Under the pieces are notes generated by a model. That model saw nothing but the letters and a program-made list of their open reading frames with translations, was not told where the DNA came from and made no database searches. Made by a program: the position numbers and the translations under genes. Shown piece after piece: positions 5,956 through 52,211 of a stretch of DNA of 64,000 nucleotides (its first letter is position 1; each line of letters starts with the position of its first letter). The DNA comes from a virus: positions 1-64,000 of the IMG/VR virus record IMGVR_UViG_3300050821_003884. One strand, 5' to 3'.

Positions 5956-6186
5956 ATGCCATTTCCAAAAACCTACGCCGATTTAATTTCGGCTGGATTT
6001 AAGTTCTCTAAGTTCGGCACCTGCGCTGGCTGCCACGCCCGTGTTGAGTGGTGGCACACGTCGTCAGGAACGCTCATGCCGATGAATGAAATGCCCGACG
6101 GCAATTCCGAAGCTGTCACGCATTTCGCGACGTGCCCGTATGCCAAGAGCTTCAGGAAGAGACAGGCGGCAGGAGTGGCCAAGTGA
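5956..6186 (+). CDS. Small Cys/His Zn-finger-like phage protein
   Basis: GGAGG SD; CAGC...HFATCP. Confidence 0.65.
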   Translation: MPFPKTYADLISAGFKFSKFGTCAGCHARVEWWHTSSGTLMPMNEMPDGNSEAVTHFATCPYAKSFRKRQAAGVAK

Positions 6187-6208
6187 GTGCCGGGGTAACA
6201 GGAGCGAT

Positions 6209-7495
6209 ATGACAGCGACGATGATTAGCCAGCCGAAGACGCGAGAACTGCCACTCGACGCGATCAAATTCCGCAAGGATTTATATCCACGCCTTGAAAC
6301 AAATGCCATGACGGTGCAGAAGTACGCCGAGGACTTGAGCGTGCTCCCACCAATCGAAGTGAATCAGCACAACGAACTGATCGACGGGTGGCACCGATGG
6401 ACAGCGCATAAAAAAGCCGATGCGAAAACAATTCTCACTATAGCCACCGAGACTGCCAGCGACGCAGATTTACTGGAATTGGCAATCGAGCGCAACGCGA
6501 CTCACGGCCTGCAACTTTCGCAGGAAGACAAAAGGGATATGGCGAAGCGCATCTACGAGAGCACGCCAGAGCGCCAGCGTAGCGAGAAGAAGAAACGTCT
6601 CGAATTAATTCTATCCGTCTCGGAGCGGACCATTCGCGAATGGCTTGCGCGAACCGACAAAGATTCAAAGGAGAAGCGAAATAAGCGCATCTTCGACTTG
6701 TGGCTGGCCTGCCACACGCAGGAGGAGATCGCGGAAGAGGTCGGCGTCACCAAAGAGACAGTGAGTGAGATTTGTCAGAAATCGGCAGAGTTGCCGGAAT
6801 CTGACAAACCTGCCGCATCGCACCTCACCGACTTCGAAGTTCCAATTTACAACGTCTGGAAGCAGCAGGAGAAGTCCGCCGGATCAGGCCATTTCGGCAA
6901 CAGCGAAGTCCGCTGGGTTGATAACCTGCTCTACCTCTACACACAGTCATTCGATATCGTCGTTGATCCGTTTGCCGGTGGTGGTTCGACTCTCGATATC
7001 TGCAAGAAACGTTTTCGTCGCTACTGGGCGAGTGATCGGAAGCCGGTGCCGGAGCGTGCTCATCAGATACGCGAACACGATCTTACCAAGGGCCTGCCAC
7101 CGCTGCCGCGCTGGCAGGATGTAAAGCTCGTATATCTTGATCCGCCGTACTGGAAGCAGGCGGAAGGAAAATACAGCGACGATCCTACCGATCTTGCGAA
7201 CATGCCACTCGAACAATTCACCGAAACACTGGCTGGTATCATTCACAGCTTTGCGAAGAAATTAAAAAGCGGTGCCAAGATAGCGCTACTACTTCAGCCC
7301 ACGCAATGGAAGGCACCTGAGCGCGAATATACAGATCACGTCGCCGATATGATTCGCGCCATCAAGCTTCCTATTGATCTCCGCGTGCAGTGTCCATACG
7401 AAAGCCAGCAATGCACCCCGCAGATGGTGGACTGGGCAAAGCAGAATCGCAAGGTGCTCGTAATCTCACGCGAACTGGTGATCTGGAGAGTCTGA
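6209..7495 (+). CDS. ParB/Srx-like domain fused to amino-methyltransferase (N6A/N4C) domain
   Basis: LPPIEV...LIDGWHRW (ParB N-terminal), central HTH, VVDPFAGGGS (SAM motif I), LDPPYW (motif IV). Confidence 0.85.
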   Translation: MTATMISQPKTRELPLDAIKFRKDLYPRLETNAMTVQKYAEDLSVLPPIEVNQHNELIDGWHRWTAHKKADAKTILTIATETASDADLLELAIERNATHGLQLSQEDKRDMAKRIYESTPERQRSEKKKRLELILSVSERTIREWLARTDKDSKEKRNKRIFDLWLACHTQEEIAEEVGVTKETVSEICQKSAELPESDKPAASHLTDFEVPIYNVWKQQEKSAGSGHFGNSEVRWVDNLLYLYTQSFDIVVDPFAGGGSTLDICKKRFRRYWASDRKPVPERAHQIREHDLTKGLPPLPRWQDVKLVYLDPPYWKQAEGKYSDDPTDLANMPLEQFTETLAGIIHSFAKKLKSGAKIALLLQPTQWKAPEREYTDHVADMIRAIKLPIDLRVQCPYESQQCTPQMVDWAKQNRKVLVISRELVIWRV

Positions 7496-10161: not shown

Positions 10162-10424
10162 TGACAGATCAGGCGTTTCTGATGCGGGCCACCGAGATCA
10201 CCGCAGAGGCTAGGCGGGCCATGGATATCCATCCCCCTATCAACACGGCGCACGAGGGGTACGCCGTCATCAAGGAAGAGCTGGATGAATTCTGGGAAGA
10301 AGTAAAGCTCAACCCAAACAAGCTGAGCGCAGCCGGACGGGCCGACAGGATTGACAGGATGCGCAAGGAGCTTACCCAGACAGCAGCCATGTGCCTGCGA
10401 ACGATGCTGGACTTAGAGCTTTAA
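10158..10424 (+). CDS. MazG-like NTP pyrophosphohydrolase-fold protein
   Basis: HEGYAVIKEELDEFWEEVK...KELTQTAAM acidic helix pattern. Confidence 0.65.
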   Translation: MMTDQAFLMRATEITAEARRAMDIHPPINTAHEGYAVIKEELDEFWEEVKLNPNKLSAAGRADRIDRMRKELTQTAAMCLRTMLDLEL

Positions 10425-10651
10425 ACCGTCGTAGTTGAGAGTACCAATGCGTGGGAGTGAACCAAAAGGCTGGAGAGTGCCAATAGACGAGAGTGAACCA
10501 TAACTGATGCGAGTACCAGTTCCAAGGTGTGAACCATAGTAGTTGCGAGCGCCAAGATCGGTGAGTGTACGACGAACCAATCCGAGGGAGAGCACCAAAG
10601 CATACGCGTGAACCATTTGAGCGGCGAGTACCAAAACGTGTGAGTGAACCA
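10424..10651 (+). repeat. TIGR-like guide-RNA array block 1 (about 6 units of 36 nt)
   Basis: Alternating GMGTGAACC / GMGAGYRCC with 9-nt variable spacers, e.g. gagagtacc-aatgcgtgg-gagtgaacc-aaaaggctg-gagagtgcc-aatagacga-gagtgaacc. Confidence 0.85.
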
Positions 10652-10685
10652 ATAAAAATCAGGCTTGAAGACTAGGAGAAATGTA

Positions 10686-11946: not shown

Positions 11947-12130
11947 ATTTTATTCCAAGCTGGATAACCGCTGGGTGCCGCTCGGCGGCAGGGAGAAGAC
12001 GGAGGCCGAAGCATGGGAGATGTACGAGACGCTGCGCCCAGCTCATCGGCGACGCATCGTCAAGGTGACGCAGACGACGGAGGTGATTATGCAGATGAGC
12101 GAAGCAGGAGTCGAAGCATGGCCGCGATGA
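11915..12130 (+). CDS. Hypothetical protein
   Basis: Fills operon gap, coupled to next gene. Confidence 0.5.
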   Translation: MTMTVTYFQVEFYSKLDNRWVPLGGREKTEAEAWEMYETLRPAHRRRIVKVTQTTEVIMQMSEAGVEAWPR

Positions 12131-12699
12131 CGCATGGCGAACTGGTAAAACGCGCCGTGCGCTGGCTGACAAGTACACAGCGTTGCGGCGTGGTGCTGGC
12201 CGAGATCAGCACCGTCGCGCATGAGAATCCGGACGCGATTGGCTGGCAGGCGCATAAGTCGATTCTGGTGGAGTGCAAGACCAGCCGCTCCGACTTTCTT
12301 GGGCAACGGGACAAACCCTGCGTCAGGGCCAACTGTCTGGTAGGCAACGAGCGCTACTACCTGTGCGAAGCCTATGTTATCCGGCCTGAAGATGTGGATG
12401 ATACCGGCTTCGGCCTGCTGTGGGTGGACGGCGATTACGTCAGGATACGCTCGAAAGCCCAGTTCCGCTCGCTGTCGCCGTCGGAGTATCAGGACGAGCG
12501 GACCATGCTGGTGTCAGCGCTGCGCCGCATTAAATTACGGGAGTTTCTGGTGATCGCCCCACCAGAGAGTGAACCAATGCAATTGCGAGTACCAGAGCAA
12601 GAGAGTGAACCACGAAATCCGGGAGTACCAAAGGTGGCGAGTGAACCAATTAAGTCTGGGGAGCACCAATCCAAGGGAGTTAACCACGAGTGCCAATGA
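12127..12699 (+). CDS. MmcB-like PD-(D/E)XK nuclease-fold protein; C-terminus encoded by array
   Basis: ENPDAIGW...ILVECKTSRSDFL...GNERYYLC...GLLWV. Confidence 0.7.
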   Translation: MTHGELVKRAVRWLTSTQRCGVVLAEISTVAHENPDAIGWQAHKSILVECKTSRSDFLGQRDKPCVRANCLVGNERYYLCEAYVIRPEDVDDTGFGLLWVDGDYVRIRSKAQFRSLSPSEYQDERTMLVSALRRIKLREFLVIAPPESEPMQLRVPEQESEPRNPGVPKVASEPIKSGEHQSKGVNHECQ

Positions 12700-12780
12700 A
12701 ACGCGTGAACCAAAATGGTAGCGAGTGCCAACTAAGTGCGTGAACCATGAATCTTGTGAGCACCATAGAAGCAGAGTGAA
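12567..12780 (+). repeat. TIGR-like guide-RNA array block 2 (about 6 units)
   Basis: gagtgaacc-aatgcaatt-gcgagtacc-agagcaaga-gagtgaacc-acgaaatcc-gggagtacc...; ends GAGTGAA 5 nt before next ATG. Confidence 0.85.
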
Positions 12781-12785
12781 TAACT

Positions 12786-46734: not shown

Positions 46735-47058
46735 ATGGCGGAACAACCGTTGCGGGAACTTTACCAGCGTCTAAACCATTTGCTGTACGACGCCTCGCTG
46801 ACTATCGACCACTTCGAAGCCAGCCCGGAACTGGACAGGCTGCCCAACGTGGCCGACATGGGAGCGCGTCGGGTGGGTTACCCGGAAACGGAGAAGTACT
46901 GCCGGTTCAAGGTGGACCAGATGATCGCGCATGCCGAAGCCATCCACGACGAAATGGACAGGGTGGCAAAGGTACTGGAAAGGCTGGCGGCTGAAGTGCA
47001 GCCTTCCGTGGCGGAAACGGGTCCGTGGCGCGAGCTTTTACGTTTTAATAAAAAGTAA
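46735..47058 (+). CDS. Hypothetical protein
   Basis: GGGAGGGG SD; array starts right after its stop. Confidence 0.6.
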   Translation: MAEQPLRELYQRLNHLLYDASLTIDHFEASPELDRLPNVADMGARRVGYPETEKYCRFKVDQMIAHAEAIHDEMDRVAKVLERLAAEVQPSVAETGPWRELLRFNKK

Positions 47059-49147
47059 GCGCCATCAGAAGTAGAGCGTCAAGCCAAAGAAATCGTGCGT
47101 GCCAAGTAATTTGCGTGAGCCAACTGATACGCGAGCGCCATGAAGGGAGAGTGAGCCGCTATGCTGGAGAGCGCCAAATGAAGGGAGCGGTACACTGGGG
47201 CGTCCGAATCATGGCCGATGAGAGTACCACAGTGTCAGAGTGAACCAAACGAGTGATATAAGGGGTTTTTGTACATTAACCATTGTCTAGGCGAGCACCA
47301 CGAACAGCGAGTGAATCATGGGACATGAGAGTGCCAAGAGGCGGGAGTGAATCAAGCAAATTGAGAGTACCGGGAAAAGGGAGTGGCGAGCCATTTGCGG
47401 ATGCGAGTGCCAAAGCAAGCGTGCGAGCCAGCCTAAGTGAGCGACAGCCGTTCTTGATACGAGCGCCATGGAGTGGGAGCGAACCATATCTTGAGTGAGC
47501 GCCAAAATGGTGGTGTGAACCACCGAAATTGCGAGTACCAAAGTAAATGCGTGAACCGGAAAGCTATGAGAGCACCAGAATCAGGGAGTGAGCCAAAGAT
47601 CGTGAGAGCGCCAAAGGCCGAGGAGCGAACCATCATTGCTGCGAGCACCATTAAAGTTGCGTGAATCAGTAATCATGCGAGCACCAAAAGAGGTGAGTGA
47701 ATCAGACATGACGAGAGCGCCAAGATCAGCGAGTGAACCAGTAATTATGCGAGCACCAGAATAATAGCGTGAACCAATCTAGCAGCGAGCACCAAGACGA
47801 TAGAGTGAATCATGCAAACTGCGAGTGCCACGCCCGGAGAGTGAACCAAAGTATGAGCGGGTGCCAAACCAAATGCGTGAATAAACGAATGATACAGGTG
47901 GCTTTTATAATTTTAATTTCAGCCAAAATTACTTGCGAGCGCCATCGTAAGAGTGAACCAAGTCTTTGGCGAGTGCCGGGAATCCCGCGTGAGCCAATAG
48001 GTAGTGCGAGCGCCAAAGTGACAGTGCGAACCGAAAGACGCGAGATGCGCCAAAGAAAATGCGTGAACCGTAATGAAAGTGAGCGCCAAGTTCAGAGCGT
48101 GAACCAAGTTGATTGCGAGCACCATTAACGGCGAGTGAACCAACATGGATGTGCGTGCCAAGCGCATGGAGTGAAATGAGTGATACCGGGGCTTTTGCTT
48201 TTCAAACCATTACATCGGCGGGTGCCAATAAACGAGCGTGAAATTAACCAGTTCAAATGCGCAGTACCAAATAATCCGCGTGAACCACAAAGTAGTGCGA
48301 GCACCACAACACCGGCGTGAACCATATGCACCGCGTGTGCCATAGTAAAAGCAAAAGCCCCGGTATCGCTCGTTTAACCAACCTTACGGCGAGCGCCAAG
48401 TTGGAAGCGTGGAACCGGAATCAGAGTGAGCGCCAAATACGCTGAGTGAAACCATGGGTGTTGCGAGCACCAGTAAGACTGCGTGAACCAAGATCAGGGA
48501 GAGTGCCAATCGATGAGAGTGAACCAAGTACACCGGGAGTTACCAAAGGAGTTGAGTGAACCAAAGAGTGTTGCGAGTGCCATAACTGCGGAGTAACCAA
48601 CCCACAAGCGAGTACCAAAGATTACGCGTGAACTAATTCATTTGCGAGCGCCAAGGAATCGGAGTGAACCAATCAGCAGGGGAGGAGGACCGTGAAAACT
48701 TACACCGTGCTGCTCAGGGACCGCAGTTATCACGAAATTAAAGCCATGAACGAAAACAGCGCTTACAACAAGGCCCTGCGCCGCTTCGGAATCCATAGCG
48801 TCTTTGCCGTCTGGCGGACCCGATCAGCGCCCGGAGTCTTTAAGGATTAAGGGAACAACAGCCAGTGTAGATGCGAGCGCCAAGATACCAGTGTGAGCCG
48901 ATGTACAGCGAAAGCCATCTTTGACGGGAGTACCGGAAGGATTGAGTGAACCAATGTCGAAGGTGAGCACCACGGTATAGGAGTGAACCAATAGATGCGA
49001 GAGCGCCACAGCCATAGCGTGAACCAGCTTGATAGTGAGTGCCAGATATAGGGAGTGAACCAGAACCCTAGAGAGCGCCAAGATTGAGGAGTGAATTTGA
49101 AAGAAGTTACCCCGGATCGCGTGCGAGTGCCGAATCCAAGGAGTGAA
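47059..49147 (+). repeat. TIGR-like guide-RNA array block 3 (roughly 45-50 units, interrupted)
   Basis: Continuous 36-nt periodicity of GMGTGAACC-N9-GMGAGYRCC-N9; ends GAGTGAA 9 nt before the tas ATG. Confidence 0.9.
48692..48850 (+). CDS. Small basic protein (52 aa) embedded in the array
   Basis: GGAGGAGG SD, GTG start, MKTYTVLLRDRSYHEIKAMNENSAYNKALRRFG...KD*; non-repetitive island within the array. Confidence 0.6.
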   Translation: MKTYTVLLRDRSYHEIKAMNENSAYNKALRRFGIHSVFAVWRTRSAPGVFKD

Positions 49148-49156
49148 TTTTAATTT

Positions 49157-50173
49157 ATGAGCACCATCGCACCCATCGCTGAAGTCATGGAGCCGCTCAA
49201 GCGGCTTACGCGGGATTTAGCCAAAGCCGCCGTCACCCTGTCCGCGCACGAGGCGCGGTTTCTGGTGGACGCCTACTACATGATGCAGAAGAACCGCATC
49301 GCCGCCGCGCATCAGATTCGTACCCTGAGCGCGGGCAACGAACCCCACACCGTGCTGGACTGGCTGGAAACCCAGAGCGAGATGCTGGAATCGCAGATCA
49401 AACGCGCTCTGGACAAGTGGACGGACGCGAACCCGGTCGGCATCTGGGCAAAGAGTATCACCGGCATCGGCCCCGTCATCGCGGCGGGATTACTGGCGCA
49501 TATCGACATCACCCACTCGGAGACGGCGGGGCATATCTGGTCCTTCGCCGGACTCAATCCCGAGATGGTGTGGAAGAAAGGAGAGAAGCGGCCTTTCAAC
49601 GCGTCGCTCAAAACCCTGTGCGCCTTCAAACTGGGCGAGTCGTTCGTGAAGGTGCAGGCGAATGAAAACGACATCTACGGCAGGGTCTTCGCCATGCGCA
49701 AGAAGCAGGAAGCGGAATACAATGTGGCGGGCAGGTTTGCCCAGATAGCCGCGACGAAGGCGGCGATGGTTGGCAAGTCCACCGACGCGTACAAGGCGTA
49801 CAGCGCCAACCTGCTGCCCCCGGCGCACATCCATGCGCGGGCCAGACGCTACGCGGTAAAACTGTTTTTAGCCCATTACCACATGGTGGCTTATTTCCAG
49901 CACCACCAGCGGCTGCCGCCCTTTCCCTACGCCTTCTCCCATCTGGAAGGGCACATCCACTTCATCGAGCCGCCGCATGCGGATTTGATTCCGGGCCTGC
50001 CTGCGGCGCTGAATATCTACCAGTTAGAGATGCGCAACCGGCCAAGGAATTTTAATCCACGACAACCAAAAGCTATGAGCGCACCAATGCAGATGAGTGA
50101 ACCAGTGTCGCCGGGTGTACCAAGAAACGAGAGTGAACCGAAGCCGAAAGGCAAAAGGAAGCGCAAGGCGTAA
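49157..50173 (+). CDS. tasA: TIGR-associated Nop-domain RNA-binding protein without nuclease (TasA-like; IS110/Nop56-related)
   Basis: Coiled-coil N-terminus, SITGIGPVIAAGLLAHID...GHIWSFAGLNP...FNASLKT...YGRVF...HIHARARRYAVKLFL; no N-terminal RuvC/DEDD and no IS110 catalytic SG after GLxP; arrays on both sides. Confidence 0.85.
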   Translation: MSTIAPIAEVMEPLKRLTRDLAKAAVTLSAHEARFLVDAYYMMQKNRIAAAHQIRTLSAGNEPHTVLDWLETQSEMLESQIKRALDKWTDANPVGIWAKSITGIGPVIAAGLLAHIDITHSETAGHIWSFAGLNPEMVWKKGEKRPFNASLKTLCAFKLGESFVKVQANENDIYGRVFAMRKKQEAEYNVAGRFAQIAATKAAMVGKSTDAYKAYSANLLPPAHIHARARRYAVKLFLAHYHMVAYFQHHQRLPPFPYAFSHLEGHIHFIEPPHADLIPGLPAALNIYQLEMRNRPRNFNPRQPKAMSAPMQMSEPVSPGVPRNESEPKPKGKRKRKA

Positions 50174-50950
50174 ACCACAGTACTTGCGAGCACCAAGCAG
50201 TCGGAGTGAACCAGAGAATCGGAGAGCACCAAGCCAAGGGAGTGAACCAGCACACGAGAGAGCACCAAGGAGCGCGAGTGAACCAGTAAGTTAGCGAGTA
50301 CCAAGAACCGCGAGTGAACCATTAGCAGTTGCGAGCACCAGAACTAGGGAGTGAACCAGTAGCCACGTGAGCACCAATATCGGTGAGTGAACCATCATGG
50401 TTGTGAGCACCAGAGGAAACACGTGAACCAAGATTTCCGTGAGCGCCAATGGACGAGAGTAAACCGGAAAGCGGGAGAGCACCAAGCGGATAGAGTGAAC
50501 CAAACCAGCAATACCGGGGCTTTTGTACTTTGAACTAATTCATCAGGGAGCGCCAAAAAGAATGCGTGAACCATGGGCCATGCGGGTGCCAAAGCACGAG
50601 AGTGAAAACCATTCCGCGTGAGCGTACCAAAAATGTCGCGTGAACCAGAGTCGTTGTGAGTGCCATACAAAGGGAGTGAGCGGGTTTTGTACTTAACCGA
50701 TTATCAGGCGAGCGCCAGCGTCGAGGAGTGAACCACGAGCCGCGAGAGCACCAATGCTGCGGAGTGAACCAGAAGGAGATGAGAGCGCCAAGGCAGGGAA
50801 GTGAACCAGTGTACCAGTGAGCACCAAAATGAGTGAGTGAACCATTAGATTAAGGGAGCACCAATAGTACGGCGTGAACCAAAAAGCGAGAGAGCGCCAA
50901 GTTGGAAGTGTGAACCAAAGGACATGAGAGTGCCAGACAAAGGGAGTGAA
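50064..50950 (+). repeat. TIGR-like guide-RNA array block 4 (roughly 22 units)
   Basis: Starts inside the 3' end of tas; e.g. gcgagcacc-aagcagtcg-gagtgaacc-agagaatcg-gagagcacc-aagccaagg-gagtgaacc. Confidence 0.9.
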
Positions 50951-51148
50951 ATTAAATTCAGCTCCGGCGTGCGTGGCAAGTACGCCGGGAAGCTGCCGCT
51001 GGTGGCCGACGTGAGTATTAGCATCACCTGCCCCAAGTGCGGGATGACGAGTTACAACCCGAACGACGTAAGCCAGCGTTACTGCGGCAACTGCCATGCA
51101 TTTCACGACGACATGAAAGAGGGGTTTGAACGTGGCCCTAGAAGCTGA
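50924..51148 (+). CDS. Small Zn-finger protein
   Basis: ITCPKCGMTSYNPND...YCGNCH; start uncertain. Confidence 0.55.
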   Translation: MRVPDKGSEIKFSSGVRGKYAGKLPLVADVSISITCPKCGMTSYNPNDVSQRYCGNCHAFHDDMKEGFERGPRS

Positions 51149-51650: not shown

Positions 51651-52211
51651 ATGAGCTGCCCACGCGACGGAAGGCAGAGCCACCCCCTGTTCCAAACGTG
51701 GCGTTCCATGGTGCGTCGGTGCCACGATCCAAAGTTTAGGCACTATAAGAATTACGGCGCACGTGGCATTCGCGTCTGCGATGTATGGCGACGGTCATTC
51801 TGGCAGTTCGTGACTGACGTAGGCCAGCGGCCAGCGGGCCGTAGCTTAGACCGGGAGGATAATAACGGTCCTTATTCTCCCGGCAATGTTAAATGGGCTA
51901 CACGCGAGGAACAGGGTCGAAACACGCGCTTCAATCGTCTGCTTACGGTCAACGGTGTTACGAAAACATTGCAGGAGTGGAGCAATGAAACGGGTCGCCC
52001 GAAGAGCACTCTTTTTAATCGCATCCGACGCGGCTGGACGGGCGAGGAGGCTGTGCTCACCCCCGTGCGCGGAGAAAGCGTCTTGAGCGTGTGCCATGAG
52101 CTTGGGTTGAACCCTAATACGGTAGCGGGCAGACTACGCCGTGGCTGGACATGGGAGCAAGCGATTGCTAAACCTGTTCAGGTCCATCGAAGGAGAGATT
52201 ATGTCCACTAA
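51651..52211 (+). CDS. HNH (homing-type) endonuclease with two C-terminal DNA-binding repeats
   Basis: WRSMVRRC, YGARGIRVC, SLDREDNNGPYSPGNVKWAT...QGRN; RIRRGW/RLRRGW repeats. Confidence 0.88.
   Translation: MSCPRDGRQSHPLFQTWRSMVRRCHDPKFRHYKNYGARGIRVCDVWRRSFWQFVTDVGQRPAGRSLDREDNNGPYSPGNVKWATREEQGRNTRFNRLLTVNGVTKTLQEWSNETGRPKSTLFNRIRRGWTGEEAVLTPVRGESVLSVCHELGLNPNTVAGRLRRGWTWEQAIAKPVQVHRRRDYVH

Follow-up and report, generated by a model that had tools for sequence, protein, structure and literature searches.

A predicted dual-repeat TIGR-TasA system with a large, block-structured guide array in a soil phage

Genes and repeats at the locus

The window analysed here is the first 64 kb (64,000 nucleotides) of the 80,897-bp IMG/VR virus record IMGVR_UViG_3300050821_003884, which is estimated to be 78% complete. 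The phage genes include those of an integrase, a ParB-like/methyltransferase protein, an exonuclease, an SbcC-like ATPase, HNH endonucleases, and a large terminase. At positions 47057-50950, an array with a period of 36 nt runs along the + strand and surrounds the gene tasA, an open frame of 338 codons. Both the array and the gene had been recognized in an initial annotation of the sequence, which called the locus a TIGR-Tas type dual-repeat array with a TasA-like protein, and the sequence-level results described below support the call. In TIGR arrays, two repeats of 8-12 nt alternate and are separated by short spacers (Faure et al. 2025, PMC12045711), and the locus has the 36-nt dual-repeat anatomy reported in that study. 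TIGR-Tas systems were published in 2025-2026.

Anatomy of the array

Each unit of the array consists of 10+8+10+8 nt, that is, two alternating 10-nt repeats and two 8-nt spacers, as determined by counting the bases in each column of 29 perfectly phased units. The consensus of the first repeat, the edge, is G-M-G-T-G-A-A-C-C-A, with the first G present in 27 of the 29 units, and that of the second repeat, the loop, is G-N-G-A-G-Y-R-C-C-A. All eight positions of both spacers are fully variable. The edge and the loop share the pattern G-x-G....C-C-A, in which G3, C8/C9, and A10 are at least 93% conserved, and both repeats begin with a box D and end with a box C (CCA). The initial annotation had described 9-nt repeats alternating with spacers of about 9 nt that nearly always start with A. 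The alternating pattern is as described, but the repeats are 10 nt and the spacers 8 nt long, and the A is the third base of CCA.

The array around tasA contains 141 half-units in nine blocks according to a relaxed chain count, which corresponds to about 70 units, the number that had been estimated by eye. Together with 13 units elsewhere, the phage carries about 83 unit equivalents. Seven to eight of the blocks start with AACC after unrelated bases and end with GAGTGA(A), in agreement with the truncated-edge rule of Faure et al. 2025 (PMC12045711) and with the 5+5 division of the edge in their SpTasH half-edge construct. Because the blocks open and close in this way, the GAGTGAACCA repeat is assigned as the edge. 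The array is strictly oriented: in the whole 80.9-kb genome, 147 chained half-units (8 of 10 repeat positions matching, chained at 17-19 nt) are on the + strand and 8 on the - strand, and exact edge repeats occur 43 times on the + strand and never on the - strand. The array signal is far beyond chance.

The strand polarity bears on the possibility that the repeats act as DNA, either as iterated centromere- or iteron-like protein-binding sites or as recombination substrates that shuffle cassettes. The arrays do flank genes (tasA, a 52-aa open reading frame (ORF), and a four-gene cassette located between two remote arrays), a ParB-like protein is encoded at 6086-7495, and the repeats recombine, as evidenced by indels of 36, 72, and 108 nt in a soil variant of the locus. 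Against this possibility stand the strict polarity, the exact agreement with tigRNA anatomy, including box C/D and the half-edge borders, and the position of a Tas protein with conserved RNA-processing residues in the middle of the array. The ParB-like gene is 43 kb from tasA and does not share an operon with it. A function of the repeats at the DNA level is therefore very improbable.

The two alternating 10-nt repeats and 8-nt spacers do not fit a CRISPR-Cas system, which has a single repeat of about 25-40 nt and spacers of comparable length, as the initial annotation had argued, and no Cas-like match was found in PHROGs among the 20 ORFs scanned, which comprised those flanking the array and the ten largest of the window. 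The repeats contain neither RUGAUGA (K-turn box C) nor CUGA (box D) of box C/D small ribonucleoproteins, in which Nop5 is partnered by fibrillarin and L7Ae. No Nop5 chain was present in the best 50 VIA-align rows or in the Foldseek matches listed, which does not exclude a similarity to Nop5. Searches of the window identified no Rfam family and no tRNA. Growth of the array by duplication was considered and rejected, since near-duplicate spacers are not in excess after the removal of adjoining double counts.

In one of the three reading frames every edge repeat contains TGA, and the remaining two frames are open across the repeats. Array-encoded protein tails are therefore expected wherever a gene runs into an array.

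Predicted structure of TasA

TasA is composed of a coiled-coil hairpin (residues ~30-90), a Nop domain that extends to residue ~295, and a disordered tail (residues 301-338). Pfam recognizes only Transposase_20 (residues 99-136, E 1e-5; profile positions 5-43 of 87) and no nuclease family at E values up to 1. The PHROGs label of the protein is "transposase" (phrog_4285, E 1.3e-47). Among solved structures, phmmer finds TasR (PDB 9mty, E 8.7e-13), TasH (E 5e-8), and the IS621 recombinase (E 2e-3), the last with an alignment confined to TasA residues 36-138.

The AlphaFold model of TasA, calculated with 26 relatives, is all helical and without strands, and has a mean predicted local distance difference test score (pLDDT) of 80.6 and a predicted template modeling score of 0.78; the pLDDT of the tail from residue 301 is below 50. 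In Foldseek, chains of TasH and TasR rank first with a probability of 1.00, followed by IS110-family recombinases. VIA-align superimposes model residues 28-278 on TasH 66-309 (Z 17.7, 218 residues, root-mean-square deviation 3.5) and residues 29-276 on TasR 112-322 (Z 16.8, 193 residues). The match to ISCro4 has a Z of 11.7, and the remaining rows fit the coiled-coil hairpin only. The initial annotation had proposed a structural comparison with Nop and IS110 proteins; the one made here shows that the match to TasH and TasR covers the coiled-coil and Nop parts only. Because the alignments begin at residue 66 of TasH and 112 of TasR, the N-terminal HNH domain of TasH and the RuvC domain of TasR have no counterpart in the protein. 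The 338-aa protein is thus a TasA that lacks a nuclease domain, as had been annotated; the all-helical model and the Pfam results agree on this point.

The database labels could also be taken to mean that the locus is a decaying IS110-family element, in which the protein is the remnant of a transposase and the repeats are unrelated satellite DNA. Pfam and PHROGs both name the protein a transposase, and the IS621 and ISCro4 recombinases are among its structural matches. These matches are weaker, with a Z of 11.7 for IS110 recombinases against 17-18 for TasH and TasR, and the RNA-binding part alone is matched. The protein has no DEDD/RuvC-like domain or any other domain containing strands, and neither a DEDD domain nor inverted ends with a bridge RNA are present at the locus. 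Moreover, the protein has more than 5000 conserved relatives that are close to it in size. A degenerate transposase is extremely improbable.

In the alignment of the 26 relatives, His266 is invariant and Tyr258 is at least 90% conserved. His266 aligns exactly with His296 of SpTasH, and Tyr258 aligns with Tyr289 at an offset of one residue; the two SpTasH residues are the catalytic pair of metal-independent pre-tigRNA maturation. The loop that carries Tyr258 and His266 (residues 251-274) is unstructured in the model of TasA.

The 3' end of tasA overlaps the array. About three units of block B6 are read in frame as the tail of TasA, as SAP, SEP, GVP, and SEP, after which comes a basic end. In the relative P0039, a tail of ~170 aa is array-encoded in the same way, and array units inside the 3' ends of tas genes have been reported previously.

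Proposed mechanism

With a probability of roughly 0.85, the phage is a temperate soil phage whose dual-repeat TIGR-TasA system works as follows. The arrays would be transcribed on the + strand. A TasA dimer would read box D (xG) and box C (CCA) in the edge and loop repeats, and the Tyr258/His266 pair would cut the precursor in the middle of the edge. The predicted product is a 36-nt tigRNA, AACCA-N8-GNGAGYRCCA-N8-GMGUG. Its ends are proposed by analogy, because the half-edge construct of SpTasH (Table S3 of Faure et al. 2025, PMC12045711) splits the 10-nt edge 5+5. The tigRNA would lead the dimer to a site of ~16 bp, with spacer A on one strand and spacer B on the adjoining stretch of the other strand. 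Since TasA has no nuclease, the outcome would be binding and bending of the DNA, most likely with a block of transcription or replication at the target. The steps of processing, dual-strand targeting, and repression, like the 36-nt length of the product, are extrapolated from published work on other Tas proteins: TasA ribonucleoproteins bind 36-nt RNAs, and guide-dependent repression of transcription was demonstrated for MbTasA, which belongs to a stem-loop system.

A different outcome would follow if TasA were the guide-binding half of a two-part nuclease that recruits, for example, the HNH endonuclease encoded at 51651-52211 (phrog_3377, E 2.8e-58), so that the targets are cut. The gene follows tasA on the same strand at a distance of 1.5 kb, and the fused combination of HNH and Nop domains works in TasH. 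Against such a partnership, a homologue of the endonuclease occurs in only 1 of 114 related loci, where it is on the opposite strand ~6 kb from tasA, and two unrelated ORFs separate the gene from the array in the present phage. Stand-alone HNH genes are common in phages. A two-part nuclease of this kind is very improbable.

Target searches and spacer composition

The published targeting rule has spacer A pairing with one strand and spacer B with the neighbouring stretch of the opposite strand, and it allows gaps of at most 2 bp. All guides with 8-9-nt spacers were searched as spacer A plus the reverse complement of spacer B and as the reverse complement of spacer A plus spacer B, with gaps of 0-2 bp, and re-paired decoy guides served as the control. 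The search in both orders, which the initial annotation had put forward, gave no match above the decoy level in the phage's own genome, in the arrays themselves, or in the 114 related loci (~1.5 Mb in total).

The results of these searches are among the observations that weigh against the proposed mechanism. In the own 80.9-kb genome, with the arrays masked or unmasked, there were no matches with 0-1 mismatch, and 15 matches with 2 mismatches compared to 16.7 for the decoys. In 80 related phage loci, no exact match was found and the number of one-mismatch matches was 5 compared to 9.2 for the decoys; in the 34 further related loci the matches were at the decoy level. Scans for sigma-70 promoter and rho-independent terminator consensus sequences around the blocks revealed nothing outstanding, with scores at or below chance. 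The evidence for repression comes from the distant MbTasA only and not from the present clade. The sequencing runs listed for the locus include no RNA run, an uninformative result as regards the predicted transcripts.

The 236 guides of relatives matched the present phage at the decoy level, and no guide is aimed at array junctions. Self-regulation via well-matched sites (no more than one mismatch in 16 bp) within the available 81 kb is unlikely. As no target was found in the phage's own 80.9 kb, the guides are likely aimed at host genes or at competing mobile elements. Sixteen bases are too few for a meaningful search of large collections, as the authors who described the family also state.

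The spacers are A-rich and C-poor, with 35% A and 17% C compared to 22% A and 28% C in the genome, and spacer B is rich in purines. The A-rich, C-poor bias recurs in most relatives and is therefore uninformative about specific targets. The bias seems to reflect a constraint on the system itself.

Relatives and host

Relatives of TasA number more than 5000 proteins in a large collection, and most of them are 265-300 aa long. In a viral collection, 489 contigs encode relatives of TasA, accompanied by arrays with GAG....CCA repeats and N8 spacers. All of the 17 related loci compared have GAG....CCA repeats and eight variable bases. The initial annotation had inferred a possible undescribed subtype from the G(A/C)G that follows the spacers. 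This suggestion is not supported: an AG box D with 10-nt repeats and N8 spacers is already described for SpTIGR (supplement of Faure et al.), and, together with the 17 loci, it shows that G(A/C)G is the norm of the family.

The closest relatives carried on genomes are from metagenome-assembled genomes of Acidobacteriota and from one isolate, Acidobacteriaceae KBS 96, and soil metagenomes contain the sequence of the locus. The host is therefore likely to be a soil acidobacterium. One relative (protein P0001) is 96% identical to TasA; its contig was not returned by the metagenome scan.

The guide repertoire had been called unusually large. It is indeed at the top end, as the array ranks fourth among 114 distinct loci in a repeat-independent count, and most of these loci have ~10-20 units or fewer within the fetched flanks. 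It is not exceptional among its closest kin: in the two nearest phages (L002 and L003), which show 71-77% identity and are represented by contigs of 121-122 kb, tasA is flanked by 142 and 144 half-units, or ~71-72 units each. Since both match the present phage in array size, the large array is a trait of a small clade. L002 and L003 share 11 of ~44 cleanly parsed guides, in the same order, and some further units have one spacer in common. Neither shares a complete guide with the present phage.

In a variant of the locus from a 2025 soil sequencing run, the arrays show skips of 36, 72, and 108 nt, and one stretch is replaced. Identity is ~99% over 48662-49400, a segment with the 52-aa ORF, block B5, and the beginning of tasA, and ~94% over the remainder of tasA (49460-50232). 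These differences hint at unit-wise turnover of guides in contigs that were assembled across repeats.

Array-like half-units on both strands (61 + and 51 -) were observed in L028 (IMGVR_UViG_3300010376_000006), unlike in all other related loci.

Comparison with known systems

The system is of a known kind and is a large, block-structured, and partly dispersed member of the phage TIGR-TasA family. Compared by description, dual-repeat TIGR-TasA systems such as FpTIGR of Flavonifractor plautii (PMC12045711; Xu et al. 2026, 10.64898/2026.09.09.750476) also have a solo Nop-domain Tas protein, are phage-borne, and contain the Y/H processing loop. Their arrays likewise flank tas and extend in part into its 3' end. 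The present locus differs from them in its nine blocks parted by a locus-specific insert, and in having 10-nt repeats with 8-nt spacers, the spacers of FpTIGR being described as 9 nt long. Its ~70 units, with 13 more elsewhere, contrast with the published "most often 5 to 15" (PMC12045711) and with a published mean of ~16 per array (65,635 tigRNAs in 4,126 arrays).

SpTIGR-TasH from Salicola phage CGphi29 (PDB 9w03, 9w04, and 21kl; PMC13421893) has the same grammar, in which a conserved base, the xG box D, four bases, and CCA are followed by N8. It shares the 5+5 edge cut predicted here, equivalents of its Y289 and H296 are present in TasA, and it is the best structural match (Z 17.7). In contrast to the nuclease-free TasA, SpTasH carries an HNH nuclease at its N-terminus and cleaves DNA. 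The four bases inside the repeats are UGAA and AGYR in the present phage and CGAG and ACAA in SpTIGR.

TaTIGR-TasR (PDB 9mty) shares the fold of the coiled coil and Nop domain (Z 16.8), the CCA box C, and the dual-strand targeting model, and differs in having a RuvC domain, a UG box D, 9-nt repeats, and 9-nt spacers. The bridge-RNA recombinases IS621 (8wt6) and ISCro4 (9t56) have in common with TasA the RNA-binding Nop-like domain (Transposase_20; Z 11.7). Unlike them, TasA has neither the DEDD domain nor the serine-containing C-terminal catalytic part and is not part of a transposon, and many small guides are encoded in the array instead of the single bridge RNA of the IS110 family.

The existing knowledge of TIGR-Tas systems is not changed by this locus. 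With ~83 unit equivalents it is a further large example, carried on a phage contig of fair length, and it can be compared with related phages and with a soil variant. The locus demonstrates that guides can be positioned far from tas, that arrays can consist of many short blocks, and that close relatives share few or no guides, and it makes targeting of the phage by its own guides unlikely. The locus may be used in building array finders and in studies of guide turnover.

Blocks, border elements, and remote arrays

The positions of the blocks, of the elements at their borders, and of two satellite arrays are listed in Table 1.

Table 1. Features of the TIGR-TasA locus and its satellite arrays (positions in the window).
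Feature	Position	Strand	Description
Satellite array 1	10424..10660	+	~6.5 units of the same repeats; flanked by an 88-aa ORF and the beta-helix protein gene; 38.5 kb from tasA
Satellite array 2	12560..12785	+	~6 units; last edge truncated, 5 nt upstream of the start codon of the SbcC-like ATPase
Block B0	47057..47257	+	~5 degenerate units
Block B1	47280..47886	+	~17 units; opens with the 5'-truncated edge TTAACC
Block B2	47924..48177	+	~7 units
Block B3	48204..48344	+	~4 units; between the inverted pair of border elements
Block B4	48375..48673	+	~8 units; extends into the ribosome-binding site of the 52-aa ORF
52-aa ORF	48692..48850	+	Orphan; between B4 and B5; strong ribosome-binding site
Block B5	48857..49150	+	~8 units; last edge 3'-truncated, 8 nt upstream of the tasA start codon
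tasA	49157..50173	+	338 aa, open 338-codon frame; nuclease-free Tas protein
Block B6	50060..50504	+	~12 units; first ~three (50060-50173) inside the 3' end of tasA
Block B7	50533..50683	+	~4 units
Block B8	50695..50947	+	~7 units; closes with the truncated edge GAGTGAA
Border element, best copy	48171..48208	+	Truncated edge GAGTGA, TACCGGGGCTTTTG.., AACC
Border element, further direct copies	~47254-47285, 47887-47927, 50502-50537, 50678-50700	+	
Border element, inverted copy	48347..48378	-	Pairs with 48171-48202; 32-nt arms, 91% complementary

The border element is an edge repeat that is interrupted after GAGTGA by an insert of ~19 nt (TACCGGGGCTTTTGTAC..) and resumes at AACC. The interruption is at about the predicted processing site. 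The element has no copy elsewhere in the genome and none in the two nearest phages. Single border elements fold no better than shuffled sequences, and a terminator scan of the block borders gave results below the shuffled expectation, with z of -0.6 to +1.4 for the border folds. The inverted pair of border elements encloses the four guides of B3, and the 231-nt fold of this region (48165-48395) has a z of -5.0.

The satellite arrays are 37-38 kb from tasA, among the genes of the exonuclease/SbcC-like cluster, and bracket the four-gene cassette, which consists of the beta-helix protein gene and three small ORFs. It is conceivable, albeit doubtful, that the guide repertoire is modular and differently expressed, given its insert-delimited blocks, the two remote arrays within the early recombination-gene cluster, and block B3, which could be locked in a 32-bp RNA stem. 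If so, sets of guides would be made at different times of the infection or be swapped as cassettes. Published surveys annotate arrays around tas genes and do not describe such a layout of blocks, inserts, and remote arrays.

The 52-aa ORF between B4 and B5 has no family match and no homologue in the 114 related loci, and a search of 5.8 billion proteins returned only the protein itself. The unannotated ORF 12013-12699 has a C-terminal segment of ~46 aa that is encoded by the first units of satellite array 2 in the SEP frame, as in the tail of TasA. This segment is probably an accidental read-through into the array.

A gene for a small cysteine-rich protein (CxxC...CxxC; 50924-51148) begins within the last unit of the main array. 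Six related loci have homologues with ~49% identity no more than 10 kb from tasA, mostly on the opposite strand.

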